Below are positions 8,654 to 27,060 of a stretch of 27,685 bases of DNA, one piece after another. The notes beneath the pieces were generated by a model. That model had not been told where the DNA came from. It did no database searches and saw nothing but the letters and a program-made list of their open reading frames with translations. A program made the translations under genes and the position numbers. Source of the stretch: a virus (lineage: Duplodnaviria; Caudoviricetes); IMG/VR virus record IMGVR_UViG_3300007863_000014, positions 1 to 27,685 of that record. One strand, written 5' to 3'. Position 1 is the first letter of the stretch. Every line of letters begins with the position of its first letter.

Positions 8654-10350
8654 TGGCAGGATACAACGTAGTTAAGACACAAAAAGGACTCCCTATTGGT
8701 TCACTACAACCATGGGGAGGAAATCTTTCTGAGATTCCAAATGGGTGGTTGTTATGTAATGGTGCCGAAATTGAGGCAGGAGACTATCCATTGTTAGCAC
8801 GTATTTTACGTGACACATACGGTGGTACTGCTTTTGGCGGTAATTTTCCTAATTATACAGGTACATTTAGGTTACCACAAACAAATAACAAAGCACTGGC
8901 AGATATTTCTACTGCTTATTTTGGTGTATATAATTCAACTACTGGGGTGATTCCTTCAGAAATTGATAATCCAAATGCTTTAAACATTATAGAAGATTTC
9001 CTTGGAGATTCTGTACCTGGATTTGAACCTGGAGATCTTGGTCCACCTAATGTTACAAATGCCAAGACAGATTTAAACTTTACATATACACCTGATCCAG
9101 CTGGAACTATTGTTAGTATTGTCACTACTGGTACAGGACCAACTGTAGCAACTACAAAACAGTATAAGAATGTAGTGGCAACTAACGGAACAAATGCTGA
9201 TACTGGAGCATCTGTTAGTGGTTTTGGTGCTTTATTTACCGTTGTTATTAATACCGATAATTCGTATGATATCATTCCTAAAGTCAAAGGACAGGGATAT
9301 GAAGTTGGAGATCAATTAACTGTTCCTGGAACTACATTTGCTGCTGACGGCGGCGTCTCCACTGCTAATGATATTGCTGTTACTGTTACTAAAGTTGGTA
9401 ACTCGTACTTTGAAGGTACTATCACTGGACAATCTATTATTGATGGATTCTCAATTAAAGAAGTTTTTATTGTTCCTAGAAAACTAGGAAGAGAACATTT
9501 TCCACAGCACTTTCACGAAGGAACATATAAATCAACTAACAGCGGCGATGCTGGAGAACAACCTGGTAGGGGTGCTTGTGTATTTGCCACCCCCGAAGTA
9601 AACTTCACTGAATTCTACGAAAGAGTTCATCCATGTCCATCTGGATACTTTGCTCCATTTGGACCTTATTGTCCCTTGCCAACTTCCCTTGATTGTACTA
9701 GTGGATTAGCAACTGGATTTTGGATTGGCAACTCTCCTACAAATAACGTCACATCTTTAAATAATTCTCCATTTACTACTGGTGCTGGTAGATATACTAT
9801 TGCTTCAGTTGGTGGCACACTGCCTGTTGCTGAACATGTACCATATGGTACTGGCAATACAGGTCATGGTCTTGGTAAAACTTGGTTTACTGGTGCTGGT
9901 ACACATTGGAACTTACGCCACACATCTGGTTCATCAGCTGATTCATCTGATGCTAACATGGTTGCCTTGAAAAACACGGGTAGATTTGCTCCTGGATATA
10001 GAGTTCCATTTTCAGATAACTCCCAAACAATTAAATCTCCAAATTTTGACTCTGGTACTAGTGGATCAGATAATACTCATGGAATTACAAAAACACTGTT
10101 CAATCACGCTGGTATCTCATTTTTGAATGATTCCTTGACAGGGGGAGGGGTTCAAGATGTTATTGAAGCACACGATCACGATGGATCATTTAATATTGTT
10201 TATGATGGTTCTAATATGGATGTTGTAGAACAACTACAAGTCCTGGCTCAACCTAATGTAACTCCAAATTCTATTGATGGAGCACTACAGATTACATTTA
10301 CCACAAGAGTGGCTTCTGTTACTATTACTAACTTAATTAGAGCATACTAA
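8653..10350 (+). CDS. Phage tail-collar domain fibre protein (565 aa)
   Basis: ATG at 8653 overlaps the upstream TAA (TAATG) and is preferred over the track start at 8632. N-terminal collar motif LPIGSLQPWGG...IPNGWLLCNGAEI...YPLLARIL...YGG...FRLP. Two HxH motifs (QHFHE, AHDHD). Ends LIRAY. Confidence 0.88.
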   Translation: MAGYNVVKTQKGLPIGSLQPWGGNLSEIPNGWLLCNGAEIEAGDYPLLARILRDTYGGTAFGGNFPNYTGTFRLPQTNNKALADISTAYFGVYNSTTGVIPSEIDNPNALNIIEDFLGDSVPGFEPGDLGPPNVTNAKTDLNFTYTPDPAGTIVSIVTTGTGPTVATTKQYKNVVATNGTNADTGASVSGFGALFTVVINTDNSYDIIPKVKGQGYEVGDQLTVPGTTFAADGGVSTANDIAVTVTKVGNSYFEGTITGQSIIDGFSIKEVFIVPRKLGREHFPQHFHEGTYKSTNSGDAGEQPGRGACVFATPEVNFTEFYERVHPCPSGYFAPFGPYCPLPTSLDCTSGLATGFWIGNSPTNNVTSLNNSPFTTGAGRYTIASVGGTLPVAEHVPYGTGNTGHGLGKTWFTGAGTHWNLRHTSGSSADSSDANMVALKNTGRFAPGYRVPFSDNSQTIKSPNFDSGTSGSDNTHGITKTLFNHAGISFLNDSLTGGGVQDVIEAHDHDGSFNIVYDGSNMDVVEQLQVLAQPNVTPNSIDGALQITFTTRVASVTITNLIRAY

Positions 10351-11249
10351 TGGCAGTATTTTACACAAACGAAAGAGCGAGATATGGTGGTGTCACAGGC
10401 ACTATCATACCTTTTCCTGTTAAATTGTCGGATGTTAATGTTCCTGATCAAGGAAACTTCAAGACTTTACTTCCTGCTGGTTTTTTGAGGTGTGATGGTT
10501 CAATTCTTGCTGCTGTTGAATATCCAGTTTTAGCACAGATATTAGGAACAGGTCAAAACTCAAAATTTAGAAGACCTGAGCAAGAATTAACTAATAATCA
10601 ACTCGTATTACCCGATATAGGATCCAAATATATTCAAGGTGGTAATGCTTCTGGTACTTATCTAAATGATCGAGTAACAAATGAGAATTCAACTAAACCA
10701 TATAGAGTTGGATCTGAAGTTAGCGTGGTATCATTAATTGGTGATACCACTACACTAACATATAGTGGGGAGTTTGAAGTTATTTCTCCTGGTAATAATG
10801 AATTTATTGGCAACCCTGCTTTTGGTACTACTACAACAGATGACAGAACACTAAAAGCATTTCTGTCTGAACAAAACTTTCAATCCCATGGTCATGAAGC
10901 TGACGTTGGAGTCTTTAACTATCTTGGAAATTGGGCAGATTCTATCTTTACTGGTGAAACCACTGGTGCTTCACAGGGTGGTAATGATGGTCAGAATGAG
11001 GGTTCTAATGAAGCAATTACTATTCAATCTCCAACTGGAGCAGCTGCTGTTGTATCTCATGGACATCTAATTGATTTCCCGTCATCTACTACTGTTTCAT
11101 TAAATAACAATTTAAAATATTCTTTTGTAAATACTGATGTTGATGCTTTTGGGTTGAAGTCAGAAGTAACTCTTACTACTAATGATCTTGTAAAACTAGA
11201 TGAAGCAACACCTCCATTTATTTTAGTAGAATACCTTATCAAGATTTAA
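10350..11249 (+). CDS. Phage tail-collar domain fibre protein (299 aa)
   Basis: TAATG coupling. Collar motif TGTIIPF...LPAGFLRCDGSIL...YPVLAQILG...LPDIGSKYIQG. Two HxH motifs (SHGHE, SHGHL). Ends PPFILVEYLIKI. Confidence 0.88.
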   Translation: MAVFYTNERARYGGVTGTIIPFPVKLSDVNVPDQGNFKTLLPAGFLRCDGSILAAVEYPVLAQILGTGQNSKFRRPEQELTNNQLVLPDIGSKYIQGGNASGTYLNDRVTNENSTKPYRVGSEVSVVSLIGDTTTLTYSGEFEVISPGNNEFIGNPAFGTTTTDDRTLKAFLSEQNFQSHGHEADVGVFNYLGNWADSIFTGETTGASQGGNDGQNEGSNEAITIQSPTGAAAVVSHGHLIDFPSSTTVSLNNNLKYSFVNTDVDAFGLKSEVTLTTNDLVKLDEATPPFILVEYLIKI

Positions 11250-11250
11250 A

Positions 11251-12810
11251 ATGCCAACAGTAAGTAGATCGTCACCTGGTAGTCAGTCATTTAATATTCC
11301 TAATAGTGGTTATAATATCACTGCTACAGTTCGTGGAGCTCGTGGTGGTAGGGGTGGTGACGATGCTGAAGCAAACGGCGGCAACGGTGGCACTACTACA
11401 CAACAATCGTTTACATTTAAGCCTAATCGGAATTTTATCAGTAGAAATTTTACAATAACTGTTGGTAATAATGGTAGTAATGGTGTAAATAATCAACCAA
11501 ACGCTGCTGGTGGTAACGGTGGTAGTGGTGTTGGTTCTGGTGGTCGTGGAGGTAACGCTGGCGATCCTCCCTATTCTGGCGGCGGTGGCGGTGGCGGCGG
11601 AGGATCCGCTGTTTATGATGGCGGAGCATTAGTTATTGTTATGGGTGGATCTGGTGGCGGCGGTGGTGCTTCCGATAATAAAAATGGTGGCGGCGGTGGC
11701 GCTCAATCTACTAATGCTTCTTCAGCAGGTAGTGTTGGATCTGGTAACGGTGGACAAGGCGGCGACCCTGGTGGTAATGATGGTGGTGGAGGCGGCGGCG
11801 GCGGAGGCGGTGCCAGCGGCGGCGGAGGCGGCATTGATGGACGAGATAACAACCGAGGTGGTGGCGGCGGTGGCGCTGGTGCTTCTCGATATAATATTAA
11901 CTACATGAATGCTGGTAGTTCCAGTTCTGGACAAGGATCATCAGACGGTTATGTATCAGTTTCTTGGCAGAATGCTAATGTTCAAATCAATTCCTTCACT
12001 GCCACTCCTAATCCACAAAATAGTACAGCAGGTCTTCCTCAATACTCAACTACATTAAATTGGCAAACTACCTATGCTTTTAATGGGGTTACTCTAACAA
12101 GTGATGCTGGAGAATCTTGGTCTTATAGTAATGGAACAAACTCTAGAGTTATTACTAACTTACCTCAATCGGTGGCAGGTACTAGTAGTCCTTCTCAAAG
12201 AACATATACTTTAACTGCTAGTAATGCTACTAGTTCTAAAAATAAAAATGTTAAAGTAAAAGCTCGTAATGATAACACGTTATCAAATAGTTGGACAACA
12301 TCATTTTCTAATTTACAACCCTCTACTGTTGTTGACTTAACAATAGGAACAGCTGCTGGTATTGATATGTCAACAACAGTAAACGCTGCTGGTGCTGGTA
12401 ATTTTGTTGGATCTGGTGGATCTTTTGCTGGATCAAAAAACTTTACTAATGGACAAACAATACAGTTAAGAACTACTACCTTGCCATATAATACAGATGT
12501 CAGTGGTGAAACAGGTATCTATGGCAAAACTAATTCTAAGACAGTAACTGTTAGTTATCCTGGTGGATCGGTTGATATTACTGTAACGACAACAGCTCCT
12601 AGGATTCGTGAGGACTTTGATTATGCTGATAATGTTAACAAATATCCATATGAAGATATTGATCTTATAACTAATTCACCAACACAACATTTAGCATCAG
12701 CACAGATTAATGCTGATGATATTGAGATTCCCATGGAAATAAAAGTTGACAAACCAGGCGCTCAGGTGAGTATTAATGGTGGTGGTTGGCAAAACGCTAG
12801 GAGTATATAA
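11251..12810 (+). CDS. Glycine-rich adhesin-like protein, paralog A (519 aa)
   Basis: N-terminal polyglycine domain (about 11330-11960), then a C-terminal region shared with 12810-16109 and 16111-17265 (PNPQNST...LPQS.AG...NDNT.SN.WT.SF...PYEDID...DDIEI...VSIN.G.WQ..R.I). Confidence 0.8.
   Translation: MPTVSRSSPGSQSFNIPNSGYNITATVRGARGGRGGDDAEANGGNGGTTTQQSFTFKPNRNFISRNFTITVGNNGSNGVNNQPNAAGGNGGSGVGSGGRGGNAGDPPYSGGGGGGGGGSAVYDGGALVIVMGGSGGGGGASDNKNGGGGGAQSTNASSAGSVGSGNGGQGGDPGGNDGGGGGGGGGGASGGGGGIDGRDNNRGGGGGGAGASRYNINYMNAGSSSSGQGSSDGYVSVSWQNANVQINSFTATPNPQNSTAGLPQYSTTLNWQTTYAFNGVTLTSDAGESWSYSNGTNSRVITNLPQSVAGTSSPSQRTYTLTASNATSSKNKNVKVKARNDNTLSNSWTTSFSNLQPSTVVDLTIGTAAGIDMSTTVNAAGAGNFVGSGGSFAGSKNFTNGQTIQLRTTTLPYNTDVSGETGIYGKTNSKTVTVSYPGGSVDITVTTTAPRIREDFDYADNVNKYPYEDIDLITNSPTQHLASAQINADDIEIPMEIKVDKPGAQVSINGGGWQNARSI
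12395..12479 (+). repeat. 85-bp near-identical direct repeat, copy 1 (copy 2 at 16844-16928)
   Basis: CTGGTAATTTTGTTGGATCTGGTGGATCTTTTGCTGGATC is identical for 40 bp; 4 mismatches over 85 bp. Confidence 0.9.
12537..12573 (+). repeat. 37-bp perfect direct repeat (copy 2 at 16992-17028; partial third copy near 15842-15860)
   Basis: TAAGACAGTAACTGTTAGTTATCCTGGTGGATCGGTT occurs in paralogs A and C; AGTAACTGTTAGTTATCCT also occurs in B. Confidence 0.9.
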
Positions 12811-15800
12811 TGCCATCTCAAACATTTACATCTAACACTTCATATGCTGTCCCTTCGGATGCTGCTAATGTTACATATATTATTCATGGTGGTAAAGGTG
12901 GCCAGGGCGGTCCTGCTAGCACTCGTGTAAATCGCAGTGGTGCTGCTGGTGCTAGAGGACAAAAAATATCTGGAACTTTAACTGGCGTTGCTGGTTCAAC
13001 ACTCACATTAACTATGGGTGGCAATGGATCTAGATGTTTTGGAGATTCTGGCGCTAATGGTGGTGGTGGATATTGGAATGGTGGACGTGGTGGTAATAAT
13101 GGTTCCTACGATAGTGAGAGTGGATGGAATGCTGGTGGAGGTGGCGGCGGTGGCGGTGCTTCTGCTATTCGTATTGGTAATACTGTATTAGCTGGTGCTG
13201 GCGGCGGTGGCGGCGGAGCGTGTATTTGTTATAGTGGTGATGCTGATGCTCCTGGACTAACATCTTCTGATATTAACACTAGTGGCGGATCTAATGGTGC
13301 TGCTGGTACTGATTCTGGCGCTGCATGGAATGGCGGCGGTGGCGGCGCTGGTGGGGGATTTCCTGGTGGTGTTGTTCAAATGATTGGTGCTGGATATGCT
13401 TGGGCTGCTGGTAATGATGGTAGTGGATTTGGTGGTGCTGGCGGTGCTGGATTTTATAACACTTCGTATCATCGTAGTACTTCTACTCTTGAAACTTCTA
13501 GTTCTGATAGTGCTTTTATTACAATTTCCTATGAGTATCAAATTATTACATCAGATAGCGCGTGGACCACTAGATCTCCTCAACTTGATAATTTTGTAGG
13601 AGCTCAGGGATCTGATCCAAATAATGCCTGGACTACTTTTTTATCTAATACTAACGTAGGTGGTTATGAACCTGAAGGCACTACCGTTACTAGATCAATT
13701 GAATGGAAAATTAATATTAACAATGCAGGGAGACAAATATTCAAGACAGCTGTAGATGATGATGCTGACGTATACATTGATAATGTATTACAATTTTCAC
13801 TTGACACTTATAACAGCAACACTAATTTTACTACAGCAGATATTATTAGTGCTGGTGAACATACTATACGGATTGAACATGTTAATACTGGTGGACCTTA
13901 TGGTGTAGCAATGGATTGGACTGGATATATTCTTCCAGTACCACCAACAGTATCCTTAACTACCAGTGATAATTATCCCGTTGTCGGTCAATCATTAACT
14001 CTTACTTATTCTGGTAGTGGTTTTGGTATAACTGGATATAGTTTTACACAAACTGTTGATGGGGTTACATCTCCTGCTATTCCTGGTACAATAGGAGGTA
14101 GTGGTGTATATTTTCCAGCTGCCTCAACTACAAGAACTTATACTTATTCAGCAACAAATCCATATGGAACTTCTACTGATTCCGAATTAATTACTGTTAT
14201 TCAGTTTCCTGTAGTATCTCTCATTTCAAGTGATTCTAATAATACAATTATTAAAGGACAATCTGTAGTTCTTACGTGGTCTGCTACTTCGTCGAACCCT
14301 TCTGGATATAATATTACAAATACTAGTATGACTGGTGTTAGTAGCCCAGGATTTACGGGATCTACATTAGTAACTCCTAATGTAACAACGGCATATACTT
14401 ATTCGGCAACAAATTATGCTGGCACTAGAAGTGATACAGAAACAATTACTGTCCAAATCATACCTCCAGTAGTATCTTTAACGTCAAATGCCTCTAGTGA
14501 CACTATTACTAGACCAGGATCAGTTACACTAACATGGTCTGCATCTGCAACTGGTAATGATATCACCAGTACTTCTCTTGTAGATAATAACGGTAACGTT
14601 GTTGTTTCAAATCCAGGTACATCAGGTACTGTTGTAGTAAGTCCATCTTACGATACAACATATACTTTTTCAGCAACAAATCCTTCTGGAACAACCAATG
14701 CTGATAGACCAATCACTGTTATTCTCCCTCCTCCTGTAGTAACTTTCGATATAGTAGATAGTAATGGTAATGTTATAACTGATAACACTATTATCGAGGG
14801 AGAGTCTTTATTTTTACGATGGAATGCTGATGGTTTTGATATTACATCTACTACTCTAACTAATTATTCATCTCCTGGACTTAGTGGTACGGCGTCATTT
14901 TCTCCAACTGTACAAACAACTTATACTTATTCGGCAACAAATGCTTCAGGGACAGATACTGATTCTATAACTATTATTGTTTACTACAAACCAGTTCTTG
15001 CGTTAACAACTAATGTGGAAGATTCTAATGGAGAATCAACTATTGATTTGTTTGACAGTGTTGACATAATTTGGTCTACAACTGGAGATGGTGGCACTGT
15101 AACTTGGACTTCTGGTACTCCAGCAATTGTTAATAGTAATGGTAATGGAACACAAGCACTTGTACCATTACCATATACTACACTTACAGAAACATATTGT
15201 GCATTTCCTTCTGGACTTGGTGGAATTGGTGATACTGAATGTGTGACCATAGATGTTATACCACCACCACCAATAGTTTCTACTTTTAGTGCTTTCCCAA
15301 ATCCACCAATTGGTTTGGATGGAACACCATTATTTGAAACTACACTATATTTTACTAGTACTGGATACGGTACTGTAACTGGTAAAATTTTCCGAGATGG
15401 AGTTTTGTATAATAGTAATGTTGGATCTCCTGGTAATGGTACTCTAGTCATTAGTGACCTACCACAATCAATAGCAGGTAGTAGTAATCCAATTTCTACA
15501 GAATTTGGTTTTCAAGTATGTAATGAGGGTGGATGCTCTCCTATTTCTAATATTACTATTTTTCCTCAAAATGATAATACTCTGTCTAATAATTGGACAT
15601 CATCATTTATTAATCTAGATCCTGGTACTCAGGTGGTAGTTACATTAGGTATACTTGATGGGGTAGATATGCCCACCACGATATCCGTATCAGGTTCTGG
15701 TAATTTTATGGGAAGGAATGGAGCTTTTACTGGCAGTATAAATTATAATAATGGAGATGTAGTGCAGTTAAAAACTACTACAATGCCATTTAATACTACA

Positions 15801-16109
15801 GTACCAGCATCAGGAACTTTTGGTCTCACTAATAGTAAGGTAGTAACTGTTAGTTATCCTACTGGATCGATTAATGTTATTTTTACAACCAAAGCACCTG
15901 TAGTTGCCGAAATTTTTGATTACACTAATACCACAAATAAATACCCATATGAAGACATTGATCGCATTACTAACTCGCCAACAGAATATTTGACATCAGC
16001 ACCGATTGGCACTGATGATATTGAAATTCCTGTTGAAGTTAAATCTTCTGATGAAAATACTGAAGTAAGTATCAATGGTGGTCCATGGCAAGATGTAAGG
16101 AGTATTTAA
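12810..16109 (+). CDS. Multidomain adhesin-like protein, paralog B: Gly-rich + PA14-like + Ig/PKD-like repeats + shared C-terminus (1099 aa)
   Basis: TAATG coupling. Gly-rich region about 12890-13460. FKTAVDDDADVYID...AGEHTIRIEHVNTGG resembles PA14. Tandem P.VSL...G.S..LTWS...TYTYSATN.GT units. Shared C-terminal region. Confidence 0.8.
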   Translation: MPSQTFTSNTSYAVPSDAANVTYIIHGGKGGQGGPASTRVNRSGAAGARGQKISGTLTGVAGSTLTLTMGGNGSRCFGDSGANGGGGYWNGGRGGNNGSYDSESGWNAGGGGGGGGASAIRIGNTVLAGAGGGGGGACICYSGDADAPGLTSSDINTSGGSNGAAGTDSGAAWNGGGGGAGGGFPGGVVQMIGAGYAWAAGNDGSGFGGAGGAGFYNTSYHRSTSTLETSSSDSAFITISYEYQIITSDSAWTTRSPQLDNFVGAQGSDPNNAWTTFLSNTNVGGYEPEGTTVTRSIEWKININNAGRQIFKTAVDDDADVYIDNVLQFSLDTYNSNTNFTTADIISAGEHTIRIEHVNTGGPYGVAMDWTGYILPVPPTVSLTTSDNYPVVGQSLTLTYSGSGFGITGYSFTQTVDGVTSPAIPGTIGGSGVYFPAASTTRTYTYSATNPYGTSTDSELITVIQFPVVSLISSDSNNTIIKGQSVVLTWSATSSNPSGYNITNTSMTGVSSPGFTGSTLVTPNVTTAYTYSATNYAGTRSDTETITVQIIPPVVSLTSNASSDTITRPGSVTLTWSASATGNDITSTSLVDNNGNVVVSNPGTSGTVVVSPSYDTTYTFSATNPSGTTNADRPITVILPPPVVTFDIVDSNGNVITDNTIIEGESLFLRWNADGFDITSTTLTNYSSPGLSGTASFSPTVQTTYTYSATNASGTDTDSITIIVYYKPVLALTTNVEDSNGESTIDLFDSVDIIWSTTGDGGTVTWTSGTPAIVNSNGNGTQALVPLPYTTLTETYCAFPSGLGGIGDTECVTIDVIPPPPIVSTFSAFPNPPIGLDGTPLFETTLYFTSTGYGTVTGKIFRDGVLYNSNVGSPGNGTLVISDLPQSIAGSSNPISTEFGFQVCNEGGCSPISNITIFPQNDNTLSNNWTSSFINLDPGTQVVVTLGILDGVDMPTTISVSGSGNFMGRNGAFTGSINYNNGDVVQLKTTTMPFNTTVPASGTFGLTNSKVVTVSYPTGSINVIFTTKAPVVAEIFDYTNTTNKYPYEDIDRITNSPTEYLTSAPIGTDDIEIPVEVKSSDENTEVSINGGPWQDVRSI
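13941..15266 (+). repeat. Five tandem Ig/PKD-like protein repeats in paralog B
   Basis: Units of about 85-90 aa start near 13941, 14205, 14463, 14730 and 14988. The first four end TYT(Y/F)SATN..GT; the fifth is diverged. Confidence 0.75.
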
Positions 16110-16110
16110 C

Positions 16111-17265
16111 ATGCCAACTGTAACTTTTTCCGTGGGCAGAGCTGCCGATAATGAAAATTTTATATCAATAGGTTCCTTCACCGTAGGACCAAACGCTGGT
16201 AATGTCTCCTGGTTTTACGGTCCTGGAAGTTATAATGGAATTTCTAGTTATGGCAATGGACCTGGTGGTACAGCTTTACGATTTAGTGGAAATACTGTTG
16301 GGTTAGATGACAATCAAGGCCAATATGATTCGGATGGCAATCCTCAATTTGATAGTGATTATAATGACTTAACGGCAACAATTACTTCAGGTAATGCTAT
16401 TTTTACTGGAGGTCAATTATATGTTTACTACGATCCAGTTACAATTTATAATTTTTATGCTAGCCCAAATCCACAAAATAGTACTGGTGGCACTCCTCAA
16501 TATTCCACTACGTTGTATTGGAGTTCTGTTAATGGTACGTCAGCGACGATTACTAGTTCTGCTGGAGAATCTTGGGGAGTAGGAACATCTGGCAATAGAG
16601 GCATTTTTAATCTACCACAATCAACAGCAGGTAGTAATAGTCCAAGAACTAGAAATTATAGTTTATCAGTATCTAATCCTAATAGTAGTAAATCTGCGTC
16701 TACTAGTGTTTCAGTTAGAAATGATAATACACCATCAAATGGTTGGACTACATCGTTCACTAATTTAAATCCTAGTACGTTATATACACTCAATATTGGC
16801 ACTCTTTCTGGTGTTGATATGCCTACCACGATATCAACAACATCTGGTAATTTTGTTGGATCTGGTGGATCTTTTGCTGGATCTAAAAACTTTACTAATG
16901 GCCAAGCAATTCAGTTAAGAACTACTACATTACCATTTAATACTAGTATGTCAGGCGTAGCTTCTAATGCTACATATGGAAATACAAATAGTAAGACAGT
17001 AACTGTTAGTTATCCTGGTGGATCGGTTAATGTTACTATAACTACCAAAGCACCTGTAGTAAAAGAGACATTTAATTACGCTGATAATGTAGGTAAATTT
17101 CCATATGAGGATATTGATCTTGTAGTTAACACCCCACTCGAATTTACTACATCCGCTAATATTACTGCTGATGATATTGAAATTGCTCAAGAAGTTAAAT
17201 TGGATAATCCTGATGCTCAGGTCAGCATAAATAGTGGAACATGGCAAAATGTAAGAGCAATTTAA
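16111..17265 (+). CDS. Adhesin-like protein, paralog C: short unique N-terminal domain + shared C-terminus (384 aa)
   Basis: About 110 unique N-terminal residues, then a region closely similar to paralog A (e.g. identical GNFVGSGGSFAGSKNFTNGQ and TNSKTVTVSYPGGSV). Confidence 0.8.
   Translation: MPTVTFSVGRAADNENFISIGSFTVGPNAGNVSWFYGPGSYNGISSYGNGPGGTALRFSGNTVGLDDNQGQYDSDGNPQFDSDYNDLTATITSGNAIFTGGQLYVYYDPVTIYNFYASPNPQNSTGGTPQYSTTLYWSSVNGTSATITSSAGESWGVGTSGNRGIFNLPQSTAGSNSPRTRNYSLSVSNPNSSKSASTSVSVRNDNTPSNGWTTSFTNLNPSTLYTLNIGTLSGVDMPTTISTTSGNFVGSGGSFAGSKNFTNGQAIQLRTTTLPFNTSMSGVASNATYGNTNSKTVTVSYPGGSVNVTITTKAPVVKETFNYADNVGKFPYEDIDLVVNTPLEFTTSANITADDIEIAQEVKLDNPDAQVSINSGTWQNVRAI
16844..16928 (+). 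repeat. 85-bp near-identical direct repeat, copy 2
   Basis: Aligns without gaps to 12395-12479 with 4 substitutions. Confidence 0.9.
17227..17233 (+). promoter_or_regulatory. Possible late promoter (ATAAATA) embedded in the end of paralog C
   Basis: 33 nt upstream of ATG 17267. The equivalent positions of paralogs A and B (attaatggt, atcaatggt) lack it. Confidence 0.4.
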
Positions 17266-17266
17266 A

Positions 17267-17476
17267 ATGGCAGTCGAAAGAACCGAAGTTGTAGATGCTA
17301 TTGAAGTTAGACCTTTGCTAAAGCAAGTAGGTGTTACAAAGACTGTGACTACAAAAGAAGATGGAGAAACAGTATCGGTAAATTCTTATACTCATTATTT
17401 TTCCCAAGACGACGACATTTCTGCTGAAGATGCTTTATTTCAGAATATTTCTAATCATTATTGGAGTACATTATGA
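17267..17476 (+). CDS. Small acidic hypothetical protein (69 aa), possible fibre-associated/chaperone protein
   Basis: ATG 1 nt after the upstream stop; its TGA overlaps the next ATG. The pattern VVDAIEV...KEDG..VS...H...DDIS.ED...W recalls small proteins found beside marine phage fibre genes (recollection, not searched). Confidence 0.65.
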   Translation: MAVERTEVVDAIEVRPLLKQVGVTKTVTTKEDGETVSVNSYTHYFSQDDDISAEDALFQNISNHYWSTL

Positions 17477-17649
17477 AAAAATTTCCTGTAGTAAATAATT
17501 TAAATCCAAGTCATCCTCATTATAAGTCAAAGATCTTTAAAGTTGACGGTGATCAATCTCAAGAAATCACAGCAGACAAACCGATACAAGTAAGAATTAA
17601 TAACGGTCCTTGGATTGACGTTAGACAATCTGACCTAAATAACAAATAG
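17473..17649 (+). CDS. 58-aa mini-protein carrying the terminal motif of paralogs A-C
   Basis: ATG 17473 forms an ATGA overlap and is preferred to TTG 17461. EITADKPIQVRINNGPWIDVRQ aligns with EIKVDKPGAQVSINGGGWQNARS (A) and TEVSINGGPWQDVRS (B). Confidence 0.7.
   Translation: MKKFPVVNNLNPSHPHYKSKIFKVDGDQSQEITADKPIQVRINNGPWIDVRQSDLNNK
17635..17641 (+). promoter_or_regulatory. Putative T4-like late promoter (CTAAATA)
   Basis: TAAATA core of the gp55-type TATAAATA promoter, 35 nt upstream of the 1917-aa gene, at one of the few intergenic gaps in the operon. Confidence 0.6.
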
Positions 17650-17676
17650 AAATAGCACGTGATAGAGTAGTAATCC

Positions 17677-20600
17677 ATGCCATTCAGTAGTAGTCCCGTA
17701 ACAGTAAATCCTGGGGATAACGTTCAAGTAAGATATCCGACGCCAGGAACCTGGAACACCAGTGTTACTGTCAATGTAAAGATTGGTACTGGAACTGATC
17801 CAGATGGAGTTACCTTTGGTACGAAAATTCCTGATGCTCTACCACAATCATTTGCTTTTACCAATCAATCTGGATTTACTGGTGCTTTTAATGGTACTAG
17901 CAGTAGTGGTGGGGTAAATGTATTCCAACGAAATACTACATATTATTCTCAAGTAATTGATATTGCTAGTATTGAGATTCCAATTCCTGCTAGTATTTCT
18001 GCTATATCTAACGGTCCTAAGAATAGTAATACAAACAATACTACAGCACAGTTTAGAATCTATAGAGGTGGTGCTTTTGACTCTTGGAGAACATCTATCA
18101 CTGCCAATATTTCTAATGGTACTGGTGGTCTCCAACCTGGAGATAAAATTCAATTAAGAGTAACAGTTCCAGACTGGTATGTTACCAGCACTCTGGTTAC
18201 TTTTAATGTAGGTGATGAGACATTTGGTACTGGTATTGGACAACCATCTACATCATTCTCTAGACAATGGGGTATTACTACTAGAGCACAAGATCAAAAC
18301 ATTAATCAATATGCTTTTACTGATAGAGTAGATCAGAAAATTCCTGCTGATGGTGGTCCTAGTTACTTTGGATATAACATTCCTATTACTGGTCTTGATG
18401 GTGATGTTGTACTTAGAGCAACATCTACTGGTAATGTACAAATTTCTGCTGATAATTCTAATTGGTCACAATCTATTGGTGATCAACTTGTCCTTGGTGA
18501 CACTCTCTACACAAGAATTCTTAATGGACCTAATTATACCCAGAAACGTACAGGTACGTTAAATGTATTTGCTGTTGGTGGTGATACCTATAGCAGAAGT
18601 GGTACGAATTATGAAAATACTACTGCTGGTACATACGGAGCAGGTACTTATCAGGTAACTCAAACTCTTGGTACAGTTACCGACAATTGGCAATCGTGGA
18701 CTGAAGTAGATAGATATACAGATCCAGTAGATGCCGCTCCTATTTTTACATATGGTGCTAAACTTGCGTTGACTGGAGCTCAACCAACTGGTGGGTTTGT
18801 TCCTGGTCAGAATTATAATGTTGTTGGTGGATCTGGCAACAGTATGGTAGTTAAAGTAACTACTGGTGGTTTTAATAACTTGGTTATTGTAGATCCTGGT
18901 TATGGATATACTATTGGAAACACCGTTACTATCAGTGGTGGTGGACAGACAGCTACATTACAAATTATAGAATATGAAAAAGTTGTAGTATCTGCTGATA
19001 ACTCACACAGTAGATCCGAACCTGGGTTCATGTATTTTGCTGATGTACTTATCACAGGTCTTGGCACAGAATATACTTCTGGAATTTACAATGACTTAGA
19101 AGCACCATATACAAATTTAAATAATAACAACCCAACGACTGCTAAAAATACAGTTGCTTCATTAAATGGTCAGGGAGTTAAGATGACCGCCATTATTGAT
19201 GGTACTGGTGGTTTTATTAGAAAAAATAATACTGGTACATGGGTACAGCAACTTATAGTTGAAGAAAATGATATTATTAACCTGAAAAAAGCATCGTCTG
19301 CTACTTACGGTGTTCTTCAAACTGCTAAGGTAAGATTACAAGGACCACCTGATGGTAATCCTACTATCGGCAATCCAACAGGTGGACCAAGTTCGCCAAC
19401 ATTTGCTGAAAAGACTTTCCAGATGAGTCTGTTCACTCGTGCAGCACGAACAGTTCCTTATCCATTCCATGCTACTCCTGTATATCTTTCAAATCCTGGT
19501 GTAGAACAAATTCAGGAAGTAAAAATTGATGGATTAGATCAAGCTACAACAGCATCAATTACTGGTGGTGTTGGTAGTCTTAGTGCTGATGGTATTAACT
19601 GGGGTTCGTCAGTTACTGTTCTGCCAACAACATATATTTTATATGTTAGACAGAATGCCGCCTCTGGATCTGGTGGTTTAGCACAACTTACATATAGAAT
19701 TGGTACAACATCTGATATTATTAATGGTCTTGCTCTATTTGATACATTTAGAGTATATACTAGTCAGTTTAATGTCTTAGGTGAATTTATTACTGAAACA
19801 TGGTTCGGTCAAAGTTTTATTGATTATACTGTCTTCCAGATTCCTGCCTTTGCTGGTGAAGCATTTTTCGTGTCGCTAATTGGTGCTGGTGGTGGATATG
19901 GTGGTTCTGACATACCCAATAGTACGGGTGGTCCTGGTGGTTCTGGTAATGTTACCAGACTAGCGGTTAGTATACCAACTGCTTTTTGGCCACTAAACAA
20001 TTTTGGAGAACCTGATTTTACACTAAGAATTTATCCTGCTGATAATGGTGAGGATGGTAGTGATTATGTAACAGGAACTGGTGGTGGAGATGGTGGATTT
20101 GGTTATGCTTATGGTGGCGATGGCGGCAACTCTGGCACTGGCGATCCTTCTGGTTCGGGTGGTGGCGGTGGTGGTGCTTCTGCTGTAACACTAAGTGATG
20201 GCACTTTGATTGCTATGGCTGGTGGAGGCGGTGGCGGTGGTGGCGCTGGTAATGATACTGCTACTCCATTAGAAATTCAATATGGTAATTATCAATCATA
20301 TGGTAGCTTAAGCACGTCAACAATAAACATCAACTTGCCTGGTGATGATGCTCCTGACAGAACTGGTCAAGGTGGTGGTCCTGGTGGTGGCGGTGGTGGA
20401 TATGATGGTGCTGCTGGTTCACTAATCACTAGTTATGTAGAGGTAGTTAGTGGTACTGAAATACCACTACAAACTAACGATCTAGATGCTACTGGTGGTC
20501 AAGGTGGTGGTGCTTTTTATAATACTACTTACTGTACTTTACTTGGTGCTGGAACTCCACAAGGTCAAGGTGCTGCTTGTGGTGAATCTGGCGCTGTTTA

Positions 20601-23430
20601 CATTGAATATTCACAGCAAGATGTAACACCAGATCCTTTTGCTTTCTCTACGACAGATGGTGCTACTATTGCTGAGGAAGTTTATTCTGATATTGTACAG
20701 ATCACAGGTATTACTGGAACCGTTGCTGTTTCTGTAACTTCTCCTGGGTTTACATCACAAGTTAGAATTTGTAGTACTGGATCAGAATCTAGTTGTGGAG
20801 GATGGCAGGCTTCTGCTCAAATAGCAAATGGCCAATATGTACAAATAAAAGCAATCACAGGTAATCAATTCTTTACCACATACACTGTTGGTGTTACTGT
20901 TGGCGATACTAGTGCTAACTGGGATATTAATACTGGTCCACCGCCAGACTCGGTTCCAAATCCGTTCTTCTTAACTCCAATTGATGGTGTAACTCCATCA
21001 ACTAGTGTTGTAAGTGAAGAGATTACAATTTCTGGTATTACTGTTCCCGTAATCATGACTGCTGTTGGTGCTGGTGCTGAGATTAGTGTAGAAGGTGCTG
21101 CTTACGTTTCTGGCACTCCTGGTGCTACCATATCAAATGGTGAAACGTTTACAATTAGACTGACATCTTCGGTTGATTTCTTGACTGAAGTAGAGACCGA
21201 AGTTACCGTTGGAAATGGAACTCCAACTGAATGGAAAGTTACGACTGCTGCTGAATTGGACTCAACTCCTGATCCTTATACTTGGATATATGAAGTTGGT
21301 GCTAATTTGTTGTCAACATTTGAAAGTAATACTAATTTAATCCAAGGTCTTGAAACTACTGTTGATTTTATTGTTGAGCAGGGTGCTGGTGATCAAGGAT
21401 CTGGTAGTGATTTAGCACGTATCATTAAAAATGGTGTATTATTGGCGGAAGGTGTTACAACGACTACAATTAATAACTTTGATACATTAGCACTACAGTA
21501 TACAACTAGTGATGTTATTGGCGAGACTAGGGTATTTAATACTAAATTAGGTCTTTCTACATCTACAGCAGGATTCTTTGAAACTCCTTGGAGTGTAGTT
21601 ACTGCTGGTCAATTTGGTACAGATCCCGATCCGTTCTCTTTTGCTACTCAAATTGCTTCTGCTCCTGATGTATTTACTGAAGCAGCAGAGACTATTACAA
21701 TTTCTGGTCTATCTCCTGGGATTACTATTGGATTGTATGGTACAAATGGACTTCAAATTAATGTTGGAGGTGGTGGATATAACACATATACGGTAGGTTC
21801 TCAAGCAAATGTATCAAATGGTTCAACATTTACTGTTAGACTATTATCTTCAGGGATCCCTGGATTTACAAGAACAGCATTTATTTTTGCTGGGTCTTAC
21901 GTAACTGGATACTCTCTTCAAACACCTGCTGCTGTACAAGATCCCATTAACAGTCAATGGTATAGTTCTATCACACCATGTAAATATATTGGTAATACAT
22001 TCAGTGGTCAGCAAGTCAGACTTAATACTAAATTTGATGGATTGCCTATTGGTGCTATTATGCCTGTATTCCAGGATGGTACTGAGTCTGACTTCTGGGG
22101 CAAACTTGATGGCAAACCAGACTCTAGATTCCCGAGTTGGGTTAACTGTGATGGTGGATATTATGATCCAGCAGAATATCCATTGCTATTCTCTGTATTA
22201 GACTATGATTATGGTGCTAAAACTGTTGGTGGTGATGTATACTTTAGAGTCCCTGATTACAGAAATAGATATGTCAAGGGAACGGGTGTTATCGATGGCA
22301 ATTCTCAATCATCACCTGGATTAGTTCCAGGATTCAAACCAACCAAGCAATCGGGTTCTCCTGGTAACCAAGAACCTGGAGCATTTGGTGGTATGTGGTT
22401 TGTAGATACTATTGGCGATCCTGGTGTTGATGAACTAGAACAGGTTATTACTCCTGCTACTGGACAACCAGCACAAGAATCTGAATATTTTGGTATTGCT
22501 CAGGTATCTACTACTGGATATACTCAAGTCAGTGGATTGATTGAGTTCTTTACATCGGGTAAAGCAGCATGTCCTGTTGGATTGAAACCAGAAAAGATTT
22601 ATGATGTTCCTCTACACTTCCACGATTTGATCTCTGGTGTTGCTGACCCAGGTAGATTTAAAGGTAAAGTTTCCTGGGGTGGTAATGCTGGATTTGGTAT
22701 TGATGTTGCGCCACCTAATGCTGCTAATTTAGGATCACCTACAGTGGCAACATTTGAATCATCAGGTCAGTTCTCATTCAACTTATGGGGATATGCTTTA
22801 CAAAATTATGATCTACAAGCAGATAATTTACCTGGATCTACTGGATGTGATGAATCTGGTTGGTGGGATGGAACTAAAGATAATTGGGGTGGGGGAACAT
22901 CTCCTGGTTATCAAGGTGTTAACAGTGTTGGTGGTTATGGTTCTATTACCATTGAACAAAGTGGTATAACTGGAGCGGTTTATAATGAGATCAATTCTTA
23001 TATTGATTTAGCTTCTATACCATTTACGGGTCAGACTGGAGCATATGGTGGTGAAAATGCTAGAAAGTTCCTTAGTACAGTTGACATTCCTGAGAAAGAA
23101 GTTACTGTTAAATCATATAACCCTGTGAATAAATTGAAGCATAATCACTATGTTTCATTGACTTCTATAGGTGATGATGCCGTCTATGGTTATGGTAATA
23201 ATGAGACTGGTGGTACTGCTAGTTCTGCTCTCAATAGTTTCTCTGGTGGTATTAACAGTTCTGTTAACCTAGAATTCTCTGCTTTAGATGTTGGTATTCA
23301 AGTTCTTCCTGGTACATTTACACTACAACAAACCAAACAGTTGATTCCTGTTCCCTCGTTCTCACCCCAAGATCAAGTTCCGATGGTCACACCTTACGTG
23401 TGGTCCAAGTGGATGATCAAAGCGTTCTAA
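17677..23430 (+). CDS. Long repeat-stalk fibre protein with internal Gly-rich domain and C-terminal tail-collar domain (1917 aa)
   Basis: Repeats of about 110 aa starting P(D/N)PF.F. Gly-rich domain about 19880-20620. Collar motif LPIGAIMP...PSWVNCDG...EYPLLFSVL...YG...FRVPDYRNRYVKG from 22042. Two HxH motifs (LHFHD, KHNHY). Ends WMIKAF. Confidence 0.85.
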   Translation: MPFSSSPVTVNPGDNVQVRYPTPGTWNTSVTVNVKIGTGTDPDGVTFGTKIPDALPQSFAFTNQSGFTGAFNGTSSSGGVNVFQRNTTYYSQVIDIASIEIPIPASISAISNGPKNSNTNNTTAQFRIYRGGAFDSWRTSITANISNGTGGLQPGDKIQLRVTVPDWYVTSTLVTFNVGDETFGTGIGQPSTSFSRQWGITTRAQDQNINQYAFTDRVDQKIPADGGPSYFGYNIPITGLDGDVVLRATSTGNVQISADNSNWSQSIGDQLVLGDTLYTRILNGPNYTQKRTGTLNVFAVGGDTYSRSGTNYENTTAGTYGAGTYQVTQTLGTVTDNWQSWTEVDRYTDPVDAAPIFTYGAKLALTGAQPTGGFVPGQNYNVVGGSGNSMVVKVTTGGFNNLVIVDPGYGYTIGNTVTISGGGQTATLQIIEYEKVVVSADNSHSRSEPGFMYFADVLITGLGTEYTSGIYNDLEAPYTNLNNNNPTTAKNTVASLNGQGVKMTAIIDGTGGFIRKNNTGTWVQQLIVEENDIINLKKASSATYGVLQTAKVRLQGPPDGNPTIGNPTGGPSSPTFAEKTFQMSLFTRAARTVPYPFHATPVYLSNPGVEQIQEVKIDGLDQATTASITGGVGSLSADGINWGSSVTVLPTTYILYVRQNAASGSGGLAQLTYRIGTTSDIINGLALFDTFRVYTSQFNVLGEFITETWFGQSFIDYTVFQIPAFAGEAFFVSLIGAGGGYGGSDIPNSTGGPGGSGNVTRLAVSIPTAFWPLNNFGEPDFTLRIYPADNGEDGSDYVTGTGGGDGGFGYAYGGDGGNSGTGDPSGSGGGGGGASAVTLSDGTLIAMAGGGGGGGGAGNDTATPLEIQYGNYQSYGSLSTSTININLPGDDAPDRTGQGGGPGGGGGGYDGAAGSLITSYVEVVSGTEIPLQTNDLDATGGQGGGAFYNTTYCTLLGAGTPQGQGAACGESGAVYIEYSQQDVTPDPFAFSTTDGATIAEEVYSDIVQITGITGTVAVSVTSPGFTSQVRICSTGSESSCGGWQASAQIANGQYVQIKAITGNQFFTTYTVGVTVGDTSANWDINTGPPPDSVPNPFFLTPIDGVTPSTSVVSEEITISGITVPVIMTAVGAGAEISVEGAAYVSGTPGATISNGETFTIRLTSSVDFLTEVETEVTVGNGTPTEWKVTTAAELDSTPDPYTWIYEVGANLLSTFESNTNLIQGLETTVDFIVEQGAGDQGSGSDLARIIKNGVLLAEGVTTTTINNFDTLALQYTTSDVIGETRVFNTKLGLSTSTAGFFETPWSVVTAGQFGTDPDPFSFATQIASAPDVFTEAAETITISGLSPGITIGLYGTNGLQINVGGGGYNTYTVGSQANVSNGSTFTVRLLSSGIPGFTRTAFIFAGSYVTGYSLQTPAAVQDPINSQWYSSITPCKYIGNTFSGQQVRLNTKFDGLPIGAIMPVFQDGTESDFWGKLDGKPDSRFPSWVNCDGGYYDPAEYPLLFSVLDYDYGAKTVGGDVYFRVPDYRNRYVKGTGVIDGNSQSSPGLVPGFKPTKQSGSPGNQEPGAFGGMWFVDTIGDPGVDELEQVITPATGQPAQESEYFGIAQVSTTGYTQVSGLIEFFTSGKAACPVGLKPEKIYDVPLHFHDLISGVADPGRFKGKVSWGGNAGFGIDVAPPNAANLGSPTVATFESSGQFSFNLWGYALQNYDLQADNLPGSTGCDESGWWDGTKDNWGGGTSPGYQGVNSVGGYGSITIEQSGITGAVYNEINSYIDLASIPFTGQTGAYGGENARKFLSTVDIPEKEVTVKSYNPVNKLKHNHYVSLTSIGDDAVYGYGNNETGGTASSALNSFSGGINSSVNLEFSALDVGIQVLPGTFTLQQTKQLIPVPSFSPQDQVPMVTPYVWSKWMIKAF
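20629..21945 (+). repeat. Four tandem stalk repeats of about 105-120 aa in the 1917-aa protein
   Basis: Units start PDPFAF (20629), PNPFFL (20956), PDPYTW (21268), PDPFSF (21625). More diverged copies lie at about 17840-19750. Confidence 0.8.
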
Positions 23431-23433
23431 ATA
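23427..23433 (+). promoter_or_regulatory. Putative T4-like late promoter (CTAAATA)
   Basis: Overlaps the TAA stop at 23428-23430, 22 nt upstream of ATG 23456. Same heptamer as at 17635. Confidence 0.6.
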
Positions 23434-23455
23434 GTAAAAAGGTATTCTAGTAGAA

Positions 23456-24388
23456 ATGGCGTTCAATCCAGACGATTTTCAATTTGAGAAAATCCTACCC
23501 CCCGAAGAAAGAAAACCTATTTTAGAATGGGACGCTTTACATCGTCTGATGGTTGTTCGTGTCAAGCAATCTGGTGAGTGGACTTACCTTGGTACAAAAC
23601 TTGATGCCCAGGTAAATACCAACCTACACAATAATCTACCAGATGAGTGGTCTAACGAAAATGACCGAATTGTAACTTTTGCTGTTTTTGAAGATGGTGA
23701 TCATATCTTTGAGAAGGAAAAACTAAAATTTGATTTTTCTACAAAAACATCAAAATGGTTGAGATATGAAAAAAATGATCTTACCTCTGGTCAAGTAAAA
23801 GAACTATTTGATATTCTCAAGGCAGCACTAGCAGTACAGCAAACTGATGCTGAAGTTGTAAAATCGAAAGCAATCGTTGATGTTGCTACTAGAAGAGAAT
23901 ATCTAGTAAAAACTGATGAAGAAAAGAAGGCAGTTCTAAATAAATTGCTTCGTGGTTCTGATTGGTCACAACTATCAGATGCTACGGAAAAGTTTAGTGG
24001 CGAACTAGAAATGTGGACTGCTTATAGAACATATTTGAGAGATAATATTAAAACACCAGAAGATTTTGATGATATGCTAGACTATCTTATCTGGGATGAA
24101 GAATATAATTGGCCAATAGATCCTTATGCCTATCATGAAATGGATCCAGATCATGAGACTGAATATCTATCAGTTCCCAGTCATTTTAAGTTTAGTGCAT
24201 TTGAAGCAGGAGAATATAGTACCGAACAACTCGTAGGTAATATTAAACAGTCTGCTGTTCTTGCTAAACAACGTCAAGATGAGGGTGGATTGCCATTGAA
24301 TAAGCAAATTTGGGATAAGATACAGCAGTATAGTTTGAATGAAGGACTAACTGGTGCTGTTATTGAAAATTTGAACATCACGGAGTAA
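23456..24388 (+). CDS. Tail-fibre assembly chaperone-like protein (310 aa)
   Basis: Internal LNKLLRGSDWSQLSDA...WTAYRTYLRD...WPIDP matches the RNxLLxxSDWTQLxD...WxxYRxxLRD...WP signature of phage tail assembly chaperones. Directly follows the fibre genes. Confidence 0.72.
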   Translation: MAFNPDDFQFEKILPPEERKPILEWDALHRLMVVRVKQSGEWTYLGTKLDAQVNTNLHNNLPDEWSNENDRIVTFAVFEDGDHIFEKEKLKFDFSTKTSKWLRYEKNDLTSGQVKELFDILKAALAVQQTDAEVVKSKAIVDVATRREYLVKTDEEKKAVLNKLLRGSDWSQLSDATEKFSGELEMWTAYRTYLRDNIKTPEDFDDMLDYLIWDEEYNWPIDPYAYHEMDPDHETEYLSVPSHFKFSAFEAGEYSTEQLVGNIKQSAVLAKQRQDEGGLPLNKQIWDKIQQYSLNEGLTGAVIENLNITE

Positions 24389-24392
24389 TATA

Positions 24393-24776
24393 ATGTACGT
24401 TACATCTAGAAACTTTGCCGAGTGGATTAAACACTATACAGAGGCAACACAATCAACAGTTGTACTATTAAGAACTGTAGGACCAGATGGTGTAGATGAT
24501 GCTACTAAAGCAACTGCTATCTATTCAGCATATTATTTGAATATGCAGTCTGAGAATCCAGCAATCTTTGATAAACTATTGTATAATGAGTTTACATTTG
24601 TTGAATTTACCACTGAGGAGTCTGCTGATGAGTTCTGTAGAGAGAATTTCCCCAATACTAAACCAGACGATCTGGATTATTTCATTCAATACGTTATTTT
24701 TAGTAATGGATTGTACGTTAGAGGAAACGATGGGATGACTGGACTCCGAGAACCACAACCAGAACCACTTCCATAA
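24393..24776 (+). CDS. Hypothetical protein (127 aa)
   Basis: ATG 4 nt after the previous stop, normal acidic composition, ends just before the terminator hairpin. No recognisable motif. Confidence 0.75.
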   Translation: MYVTSRNFAEWIKHYTEATQSTVVLLRTVGPDGVDDATKATAIYSAYYLNMQSENPAIFDKLLYNEFTFVEFTTEESADEFCRENFPNTKPDDLDYFIQYVIFSNGLYVRGNDGMTGLREPQPEPLP

Positions 24777-24783
24777 CTGGACT

Positions 24784-24809
24784 AGACCGCCCCACAAGGG
24801 CGGTTTTCT
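24784..24809 (+). terminator. Rho-independent terminator closing the tail operon
   Basis: Stem ACCGCCC (24786-24792), loop CACAA, stem GGGCGGT (24798-24804), then TTTCT. Starts a few nt after the stop at 24776. Confidence 0.75.
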
Positions 24810-24817
24810 GCTATAAT
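24809..24817 (+). promoter_or_regulatory. Extended -10 (sigma70-type early) promoter for helicase-HNH-MTase
   Basis: Perfect TGnTATAAT (TGCTATAAT) 24 nt upstream of ATG 24842. No TTGACA at the -35 position. Confidence 0.75.
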
Positions 24818-24841
24818 AATAGGGTAGTCAGCAAGGCATTC

Positions 24842-26089: not shown

Positions 26090-27060
26090 TGAACTCAACT
26101 CGTATTCCTGGTCACCAAATTCTCGATTGGCATCAAACTATGGGTCTCTTGGATAACAAAGAGACTCTACTATCTGGTGGTGATGCTATTCGATCCAACG
26201 TAAATACTGTTGAAGTATCATGGGAAGAAGCATCTATTTTTTATAATTCTCAGTCTACATCTGATCGTGCCATGATTCGTAAGTCTGGTCAACAGGGTCA
26301 CCTTGGTTGGTGGGATCCAGTCAGTGAATCATTGACAGATAATCCTACACAACAGCGTGGCATTCTTCTGTGTCAAATGTATCTGAAGCAAGATCGTAAG
26401 TGTGCTTATACTTTGAGTGGACCACATCATATTCTTGACTTACAAGTTGAGCATATCTCACCTAACGGTGGAGATCATCCAGATAATATGATCTTGACTC
26501 TATACAATGTCAATGAGAATCGTAAACAATCCACCATGGAGGTGTTTGTTGATCGTTGGCAGAAACGTGCTGACAAAGGAGAGACAGAGTTTAATAGTTG
26601 GTATGCTGATACGCTCAAAGCATCTGCTAAAGGACAGAAAGAGAAGGTCAAGATCCTCGCTATGGATGAGGAGGATCTAGCAAAGTTTGCTCCTATGTGT
26701 GCTAAACGCTATGAGAAGTACATGTGGCGTAATATTGGTATGTCATCACTACAACCATTTCGTTTAACTAAGAAGGGAGAAGTACGTTCTGGTGGTAGTC
26801 AAGGCAATTACAAACCAGTTCTTAATACTATTCTACACGAATACTTGTACGGTAACAAGGAATTAGCACAACAGATGTTCAGTGCCATACGTATTGCTGC
26901 TTCTAGTTATGTAAACGGAAGAATCAACAACGACACATATGCATATATTATGTGTGACTGTCTAGACTTGTCAGATCACCAACCTGTAGGATATAATAGA
27001 GATAAGTTTACTGCCAAAGTTCTTCGTAGCACCTATTCATGGCCCCATCTCAAAAAGTAA
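26089..27060 (+). CDS. HNH (H-N-N) endonuclease (323 aa)
   Basis: YLKQDRKCAYT...LQVEHISP...DHPDNMILTLYNVNENRK is a beta-beta-alpha-metal motif. TGATG coupling to the helicase. Confidence 0.8.
   Translation: MNSTRIPGHQILDWHQTMGLLDNKETLLSGGDAIRSNVNTVEVSWEEASIFYNSQSTSDRAMIRKSGQQGHLGWWDPVSESLTDNPTQQRGILLCQMYLKQDRKCAYTLSGPHHILDLQVEHISPNGGDHPDNMILTLYNVNENRKQSTMEVFVDRWQKRADKGETEFNSWYADTLKASAKGQKEKVKILAMDEEDLAKFAPMCAKRYEKYMWRNIGMSSLQPFRLTKKGEVRSGGSQGNYKPVLNTILHEYLYGNKELAQQMFSAIRIAASSYVNGRINNDTYAYIMCDCLDLSDHQPVGYNRDKFTAKVLRSTYSWPHLKK

Follow-up and report, generated by a model that had tools for sequence, protein, structure and literature searches.

Chaperone-usher pili are assembled by donor-strand complementation and donor-strand exchange, in which the incomplete immunoglobulin-like (Ig-like) fold of one chain is completed by the beta structure of another chain. 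Here, we describe a locus with a possibly analogous arrangement in the part of the genome encoding the tail fibres and baseplate of a marine T4-like cyanomyovirus, represented by a DNA stretch of 27,685 nucleotides (IMG/VR record IMGVR_UViG_3300007863_000014, positions 1 to 27,685; this whole 27.7-kb stretch is referred to as the window). Three paralogous proteins, A, B and C, as well as a small protein of 58 amino acids, s58, end with the first half of an Ig-like repeat (donor half), and a fibre protein of 1917 amino acids starts with the second half of the same repeat (acceptor half; Table 1). Fibre building and host choice in marine T4-like cyanophages are largely unknown, and large "virion structural proteins" are still unplaced in the virion. 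A conserved split domain offers a concrete hypothesis as to which proteins join and via which residues.

As in chaperone-usher pili, the Ig-like fold would be incomplete in one chain and completed from the other. Pili also offer parallels in that a non-structural protein can hold the place and in that subunits bearing a donor end as well as an acceptor end can form head-to-tail chains, as could P0018, a double-ended protein described below. Unlike pilins, in which one strand is missing and one is received, a half of four strands would here meet another half of four strands. Further differences are the setting in a phage virion, the fact that no sequence homology is shown and that an exchange following complementation is not indicated. 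In ten open reading frames (ORFs; 8632-27060) scanned with Pfam, neither a PapD-like chaperone nor an usher was matched. The locus does not qualify as a chaperone-usher donor-strand system, and only the principle is common to both.

The branched systems of Klebsiella and Escherichia phages provide a second comparison. In these systems, a primary receptor-binding protein (RBP) with a T4gp10-like branching domain is reported to be combined with secondary RBPs that carry a conserved docking peptide (PMC13352976, PMC6872550). They would share with the present locus the side-by-side receptor-binding proteins, a common docking element, one anchor, and a wider host recognition that requires no DNA rearrangement. 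There, docking relies on an N-terminal peptide or domain that attaches to a folded branching domain, whereas here a C-terminal half would complete an N-terminal half. A T4gp10-like domain was reported neither by Pfam nor by PHROGs for A, B, C or the fibre, and the conserved element of the paralogs is located at the C-terminus rather than in an N-terminal docking peptide, which places the locus outside the branched RBP systems.

The fibre itself resembles T4 gp12-type fibres in its Collar domain, its assignment to PHROG 4924 and the chaperone-like gene that follows. It differs from the gp12-type proteins in having a stretch of approximately 1400 residues, made up of Ig-like repeats and a Gly-rich domain, ahead of its collar module and in beginning with only half a domain. 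While systems in which several receptor-binding proteins dock on a single anchor are known, we did not find the putative split-domain version, or any split domain of this kind in phage fibres, described in the full-text literature searched.

Complementary halves of one repeat in separate genes

In order to define the repeat, we built a profile of 106 positions from a 75-sequence alignment comprising the intact repeats R4-R8 of 15 fibres, namely the window fibre and 14 distinct full-length homologues from related viral contigs. In a search with the corresponding hidden Markov model (HMM), the internal repeats R4-R8 of the fibre span positions 2-106. The termini, by comparison, cover only parts of the profile. 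In profile-profile alignments (hhalign), fibre residues 9-42 were placed on repeat positions 66-99 of 106 (probability 95%, P 3.5e-8), and columns 21-71 of the tail family (43 distinct C-terminal tails) were placed on positions 7-59 (probability 89%, P 2.4e-6). The two halves showed no similarity to each other, with P values of 0.12 for the fibre N-terminus against the C-terminal tails and 0.06 against s58 (hhalign). The real scores of 40.5, 35.0 and 20.5 exceeded those of all 30 column shuffles (maxima 22.3, 20.2 and 12.4). On the level of single sequences, the HMM recognized the fibre N-terminus (i-E 7e-4) but was weak for the tails (i-E 0.2 for A and 0.56 for C; none for B at i-E <= 1). Since neither type of terminus covers the full-length repeat, tails matching positions 7-59 only and the fibre N-terminus positions 66-99 only, the termini are best regarded as halves of a repeat-family member and not as members themselves.

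This coverage agrees with the earlier note on this DNA, which had been drawn from the sequence alone and had claimed that the paralogs end with, and the fibre begins with, complementary parts of one repeat; the ORFs and peptides on which it relied were likewise found at the positions it gave. The occurrence of the two halves is real and exceeds chance by far.

The break point is remarkably narrow in related loci. All but one of the C-terminal matches in paralogs (i-E <= 1) end at HMM positions 59-60, four to five residues from the end of the protein, the sole exception being the end of a frameshift fragment in contig L021. Every match to a fibre N-terminus begins at HMM positions 62-66, corresponding to residues 5-9 of the protein. 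An AlphaFold2 model of R5-R6, computed from the 15-sequence alignment, showed eight strands per repeat at a predicted local distance difference test score (pLDDT) of 94.5, with the conserved tryptophan or aromatic residue located between strands 4 and 5. According to this model, the eight-strand sandwich is split in the loop that links strand 4 to strand 5: the paralogs end six residues into this loop, and a few residues of the fibre precede strand 5. In A, the stop codon follows six residues past the conserved tryptophan.

The intact repeats R5-R6 are predicted to form an autonomous beta-sandwich. Foldseek searches with the R5-R6 model retrieved generic tandem Ig-like sandwiches, including ASH or PapD-like domains, Fabs, titin, an S-layer protein and CFA/I pilins. 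The repeat of about 105 amino acids is not represented in Pfam, and searching the PDB by sequence with the repeats revealed nothing meaningful. In other proteins of the same repeat family (P0011, P0020, P0025, P0027 and QFG06490.1 of Synechococcus phage S-SCSM1), all repeats are intact within one chain, and in QFG06490.1 already the first repeat is whole. In each of these proteins, the region aligned with the fibre N-terminus comprises the second half of a repeat and the start of the next one; in QFG06490.1, the repeat concerned is an internal one. The repeat is normally contiguous within one chain. The large proteins P0011, P0020, P0025 and P0027, which stem from the protein collections, contain repeat arrays reaching 26 copies, some of them combined with an OmpA-like or RCC1 domain.

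When modelled without a partner, fibre residues 1-60 remained a coil without strands (pLDDT 35-50, AlphaFold2, with the same alignment depth as for R5-R6); in the same model, R1 reached a pLDDT of 54-83 and the mean over the whole model, which is weak overall, was 56.8. The isolated acceptor half is accordingly not predicted to fold, which would fit a half in need of a partner and also the expectation of the earlier note that such a terminus would not form a complete domain alone.

Conservation of the split layout in related loci

The arrangement is not restricted to the window. All 18 related contigs with available upstream sequence (18/18) encode two to three paralogs ending in the half, followed by s58 and by a fibre whose N-terminus is the second half. 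They supply the 43 distinct tails of the tail family. Scanning with the tail alignment yielded 42 loci, 22 of them on contigs not already counted. In 21 of these 22 further loci, with identities down to 37%, the tail stops 6-10 residues past the tryptophan, and the remaining one runs off the contig; a continuation into the second half was found in none of the 22. The layout is retained by nearly all relatives examined.

On the acceptor side, a profile of fibre residues 1-205 was compared to 1.84 billion cluster representatives and matched 133 proteins. In 21 of them, the match begins at residue 1-5, and these represent 20 fibre-family proteins and one gene fragment; all 11 fibre-family sequences inspected among the 20 carry the second half at their start. 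None of the remaining proteins has its best match at a genuine protein start: four large proteins that were inspected matched inside tandem intact repeats and three others were gene fragments. Fused forms, which the earlier note had suggested to look for in relatives, did not turn up in searches that are weak by design. Comparing s58 to longer proteins gave none, and residues 340-519 of A compared to proteins of 910-2595 amino acids retrieved only two B-like proteins with the same tail end.

Two near-complete genomes of relatives, a 190-kb record and Synechococcus phage Sf-FR1, whose gene order is syntenic with the window, allowed an estimate of the number of acceptors. In both, the repeat is confined to the fibre, the adjacent paralogs and s58, and only the fibre starts with the second half. 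No paralog in the related loci has such a start. Because the fibre alone starts with the second half, each genome combines a single type of acceptor with three to four types of donor. In one related contig (L021, 2629-8073), the fibre is split into several ORFs, which reflects either frameshifts or assembly errors.

The median pairwise dN/dS was lowest in the acceptor half (0.12), followed by s58 (0.17) and the tails (0.25), and reached 0.34 in intact R5-R6, all of these values being rough due to dS > 1. As their values are below that of the intact repeats, the halves are under purifying selection and maintained rather than decaying. Gene conversion among the paralog tails was considered and was not seen, since the nearest neighbour of 37 out of 43 tails is located in another genome; for the same reason, the tails are regarded as old paralogs.

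A free-standing donor half and a double-ended protein

The earlier note had proposed three adhesins as donors. A, B and C do end with the first half, but the number was too low: s58, which had been overlooked, is a fourth carrier of the first half, free-standing, without an adhesin part and located directly upstream of the fibre. Compared to the family of paralog tails, s58 showed a probability of 96.8% and a P value of 2e-10 (hhalign). We found 17 distinct homologues, in which ITADKPIQVRINNGPW is nearly invariant. In every relative examined, including Sf-FR1 and distant relatives without s69, s58 lies directly upstream of the fibre. Its chain has no other part that could complete the half in cis. 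Within the phage collection, s58 and the split fibre were found together in Sf-FR1 only, and S-SCSM1 has the intact repeat; the ESM Atlas offered no usable match to s58.

In the window, s58 and the fibre share the same reading frame at a spacing of 204 nucleotides. Read-through from s58 into the fibre was nevertheless rejected, as four of the nine codons in between (17647-17679) are stops (three TAG, one TAA) and several relatives are out of frame (spacings of 200, 199, 212 and 214 nucleotides); for the latter reason, the shared frame seems coincidental. The neighbouring s69, whose stop lies four bases behind the start of s58, is conserved in close relatives but missing from more distant ones, in which s58 is retained. 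It was tried as a hidden second half and was rejected because hhalign gave no match to the repeat or to either half.

Outside the window, we found a protein of 487 amino acids that carries both halves and is known in three variants, P0018, which came from the search of cluster representatives, P0137 and P0138. P0137 is 94% identical to P0018 and stems from another source collection, and P0138 shows 90% identity over the first 180 residues. All three start with an acceptor half (amino acids 1-48, i-E 3e-23) and end with a donor half (amino acids 395-487, i-E 3e-12), which is of the paralog type and not of the s58 type. An R1-like repeat, an Ig-like module and an intact repeat are located between the two ends. 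A putative function as an extender or as a subunit polymerising head to tail would make sense of this architecture, which is otherwise hard to explain.

Proposed docking by fold complementation and alternative explanations

In the reading that is best supported by the comparative evidence, which is strong, and that we consider somewhat probable, fold complementation would occur in trans, the acceptor half of the fibre docking with the donor half of A, B, C or s58 as one Ig-like domain. Strands 1-4 of the donor and strands 5-8 of the fibre would join non-covalently to form a complete domain, and in this way a paralog, or s58 as a "blank plug", would dock on the N-terminus of the fibre. Because intact repeats flank both halves, the joined domain would represent an extra bead in a string leading from the paralog to the fibre. 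In T4 gp12, the collar and C-terminal module form the host-binding end. As these parts lie at the opposite end of the fibre, the donors would sit at its N-terminal end. Binding would involve one donor per acceptor, and competition of the donors for one socket may lead to virions with mixed ends, some carrying A, B or C and others capped, in which s58 would serve as a cap or placeholder and not as an adhesin. The interpretation given in the earlier note is partly supported, but its picture of tips on a stalk calls for correction: the stalk is a collar-domain protein of the short-tail-fibre type, and the label "tip" is not established. Mixed or switchable receptor specificity, also proposed there, is a consequence that we can only infer from this scheme.

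Several observations weigh against complementation between the fibre and all four donors. Taken alone, s58 matches the intact repeat only weakly (positions 14-59, P 1.6e-3, hhalign). Its conservation far exceeds that of the paralog tails, it adjoins the fibre, and it could be the sole true partner of the fibre. Three to four donors per genome face one acceptor type. In Sf-FR1, the donor gp22 (L001, 3568-4956) continues for about 60 residues past the tryptophan, an extension without resemblance to the second half. The low pLDDT of the fibre N-terminus may partly be due to a shallow alignment of 81% identity, with R1 likewise reaching only moderate values, and the dN/dS comparison is rough owing to the dS values above 1 mentioned before. 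Finally, the genomic context of the double-ended protein was not found, as scans of viral and metagenome contigs gave ordinary loci only.

A more far-reaching version would be a pilus-like plug-and-socket code, in which any donor-ended protein locks irreversibly on any acceptor-started one, double-ended subunits such as P0018 extend the chain or polymerise head to tail, s58 acts as the terminator and stoichiometry tunes the host range. The expression level of s58 would then set the proportion of bare and adhesin-carrying fibre arms, and the host range would be tuned without any change of the DNA. In this full form, we regard the idea as speculative and rather doubtful.

The conservation of s58 leads to an alternative that we judge unlikely, namely that the only cognate partners are s58 and the fibre, as one domain spread over two neighbouring genes, and that the paralog tails are homologous leftovers that bind elsewhere, for example to baseplate or upstream collar proteins, or to the fibre only marginally. 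The position of s58 directly upstream of the fibre in every relative, also in distant ones without s69, its core, which like the acceptor is nearly invariant, and its dN/dS, which is lower than that of the tails, all speak for such a pair. The tails, however, agree in their four-strand half and in where they stop across about 59 distinct sequences, with identities as low as 37%, and they match s58 itself with the P value given above. In addition, no second acceptor was found in the two near-complete genomes, and the double-ended protein has a tail of the paralog type.

Quite unlikely, in our view, is homo-oligomerisation of the halves without any pairing between them, so that, for example, three N-termini of the fibre or three paralog tails would assemble into a trimer of beta structure. 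The short tail fibres of T4, formed by gp12, are trimers, many fibre termini form trimeric beta structures, and the fibre described here has a collar domain and belongs to the short-tail-fibre family; moreover, the monomeric AlphaFold2 models are blind to trimers. On the other hand, the confident prediction of the intact repeats as autonomous monomeric sandwiches implies that the arms resemble single-chain beads, the exact complementarity of the break points would have to be a coincidence, and neither s58 nor the double-ended protein would have an obvious role.

Completion of each half in cis is very improbable: the insertions in R1, which exceeds a standard repeat by about 45 residues, might serve the fibre N-terminus, and the N-terminal parts of the paralogs might serve their own tails, but these parts are mutually unrelated and none starts with a second half, s58 has no further part, and AlphaFold2 leaves fibre residues 1-60 unpacked on R1. 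Equally improbable and disfavoured is the reading of the halves as functionless relics left behind by an ancient gene fission or by recombination among repeats, since, even though repeat-rich fibre genes recombine often and the fibre in L021 is broken into several ORFs, the halves evolve slower than intact repeats, their termini are fixed within a few residues across dozens of diverged genes and a gene of 58 codons encoding little else than a half is retained in all relatives.

If the donor and acceptor halves do complement each other, two to three adhesin-like proteins, one of them with a sugar-binding PA14 domain, could use a single anchor, which would represent a docking principle for phage receptor-binding proteins that we did not find described in the literature searched. 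The halves would also constitute a natural pair of tags of about 50-75 residues for the non-covalent coupling of proteins. With a donor of 58 amino acids and a double-ended protein of 487 amino acids, the idea is directly testable in vitro.

Gene content and annotation of the window

The assembly that holds the window consists of the window alone. A megablast search identified Synechococcus phages ACG-2014e and ACG-2014j as partial matches only, with the corresponding genes labelled "virion structural protein". The genes are packed stop to start, and the features discussed here are listed in Table 1.

Table 1. Coordinates of genes and domain halves in the window (aa, amino acids; E, E-value)
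Feature	Position	Strand	Description
Giant fibre-like protein	up to 8653, 5' end open	+	
Two collar-domain proteins	between giant fibre-like protein and A	+	
Paralog A, 519 aa	11251-12810	+	Gly-rich N-terminal domain, Ig-like module, intact repeat, donor half; phrog_2155/29022 virion structural protein
Intact repeat of A	12268-12591		aa 340-447, directly before donor half
Donor half of A	12595-12810	+	strands 1-4; HMM match A 471-515 on positions 14-60
Paralog B, 1099 aa	12810-16109	+	Gly-rich domain, PA14 domain, ~5 Ig-like repeats, conserved C-terminal module
PA14 domain of B	13635-13922		Pfam E 6e-6, 26.6 bits vs cut-off 24
Donor half of B	15894-16109	+	59% identity to A tail; aligned with A and C
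Paralog C, 384 aa	16111-17265	+	N-terminal domain differs, followed by conserved C-terminal module
Donor half of C	17050-17265	+	HMM match C 338-380 on positions 16-60; tail alignment with A, B
s69, 69 aa	17267-17476	+	phrog_6228, unknown function
s58, 58 aa	17473-17649	+	little more than donor half
Fibre protein, 1917 aa	17677-23430	+	Pfam Collar; phrog_4924 short tail fiber
Acceptor half, fibre residues 1-51	17677-17829	+	strands 5-8 of repeat
R5-R8 of fibre	20617-21927		aa 981-1417
Tail-fibre assembly chaperone-like protein	23456-24388	+	phrog_4697, E 4e-38; Pfam Phage_tail_APC below cut-off

From its N-terminus, the fibre is composed of the acceptor half, R1-R4, a Gly-rich domain (amino acids 700-980), R5-R8, the collar domain and a C-terminal module. 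The Pfam Collar domain (PF07484) was detected at amino acids 1487-1532 with 30.5 bits against a cut-off of 24, which assigns the fibre, as judged by its sequence, to the tail-collar or short-tail-fibre (T4 gp12-like) family. Correspondingly, amino acids 1140-1917 match phrog_4924, "short tail fiber" (E 1e-89). An LHFHD motif at amino acids 1646-1650 presumably matches the metal-binding histidine motif of T4 gp12, and the 498 C-terminal amino acids were not matched by sequence to any solved structure in the PDB.

Among the paralogs, the N-terminal parts are mutually unrelated, and C and A share 52% identity over 388 amino acids. A and B were assigned to "virion structural protein" families by PHROGs. 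The PA14 domain of B suggests a possible function in sugar binding, and the Ig-like repeats of B lie downstream of this domain (amino acids ~380-820, nucleotides ~13950-15270). Gly-rich domains with GGxGG runs occur at the N-termini of A and B (11251-11970 and 12810-13530) and inside the fibre (19775-20616), and such a domain is likewise located at the C-terminus of the repeat protein of S-SCSM1.

The T4 late-promoter consensus TATAAATA had no match in the window (1-27685), compared to 2.2 expected by chance. The giant fibre-like protein, both collar-domain proteins and the fibre end with a similar short hydrophobic motif (...WWLVEI, ...NLIRAY, ...VEYLIKI and ...KWMIKAF, at 8620-8653, 10320-10350, 11220-11249 and 23400-23430), which may represent a shared attachment or trimerisation signal.

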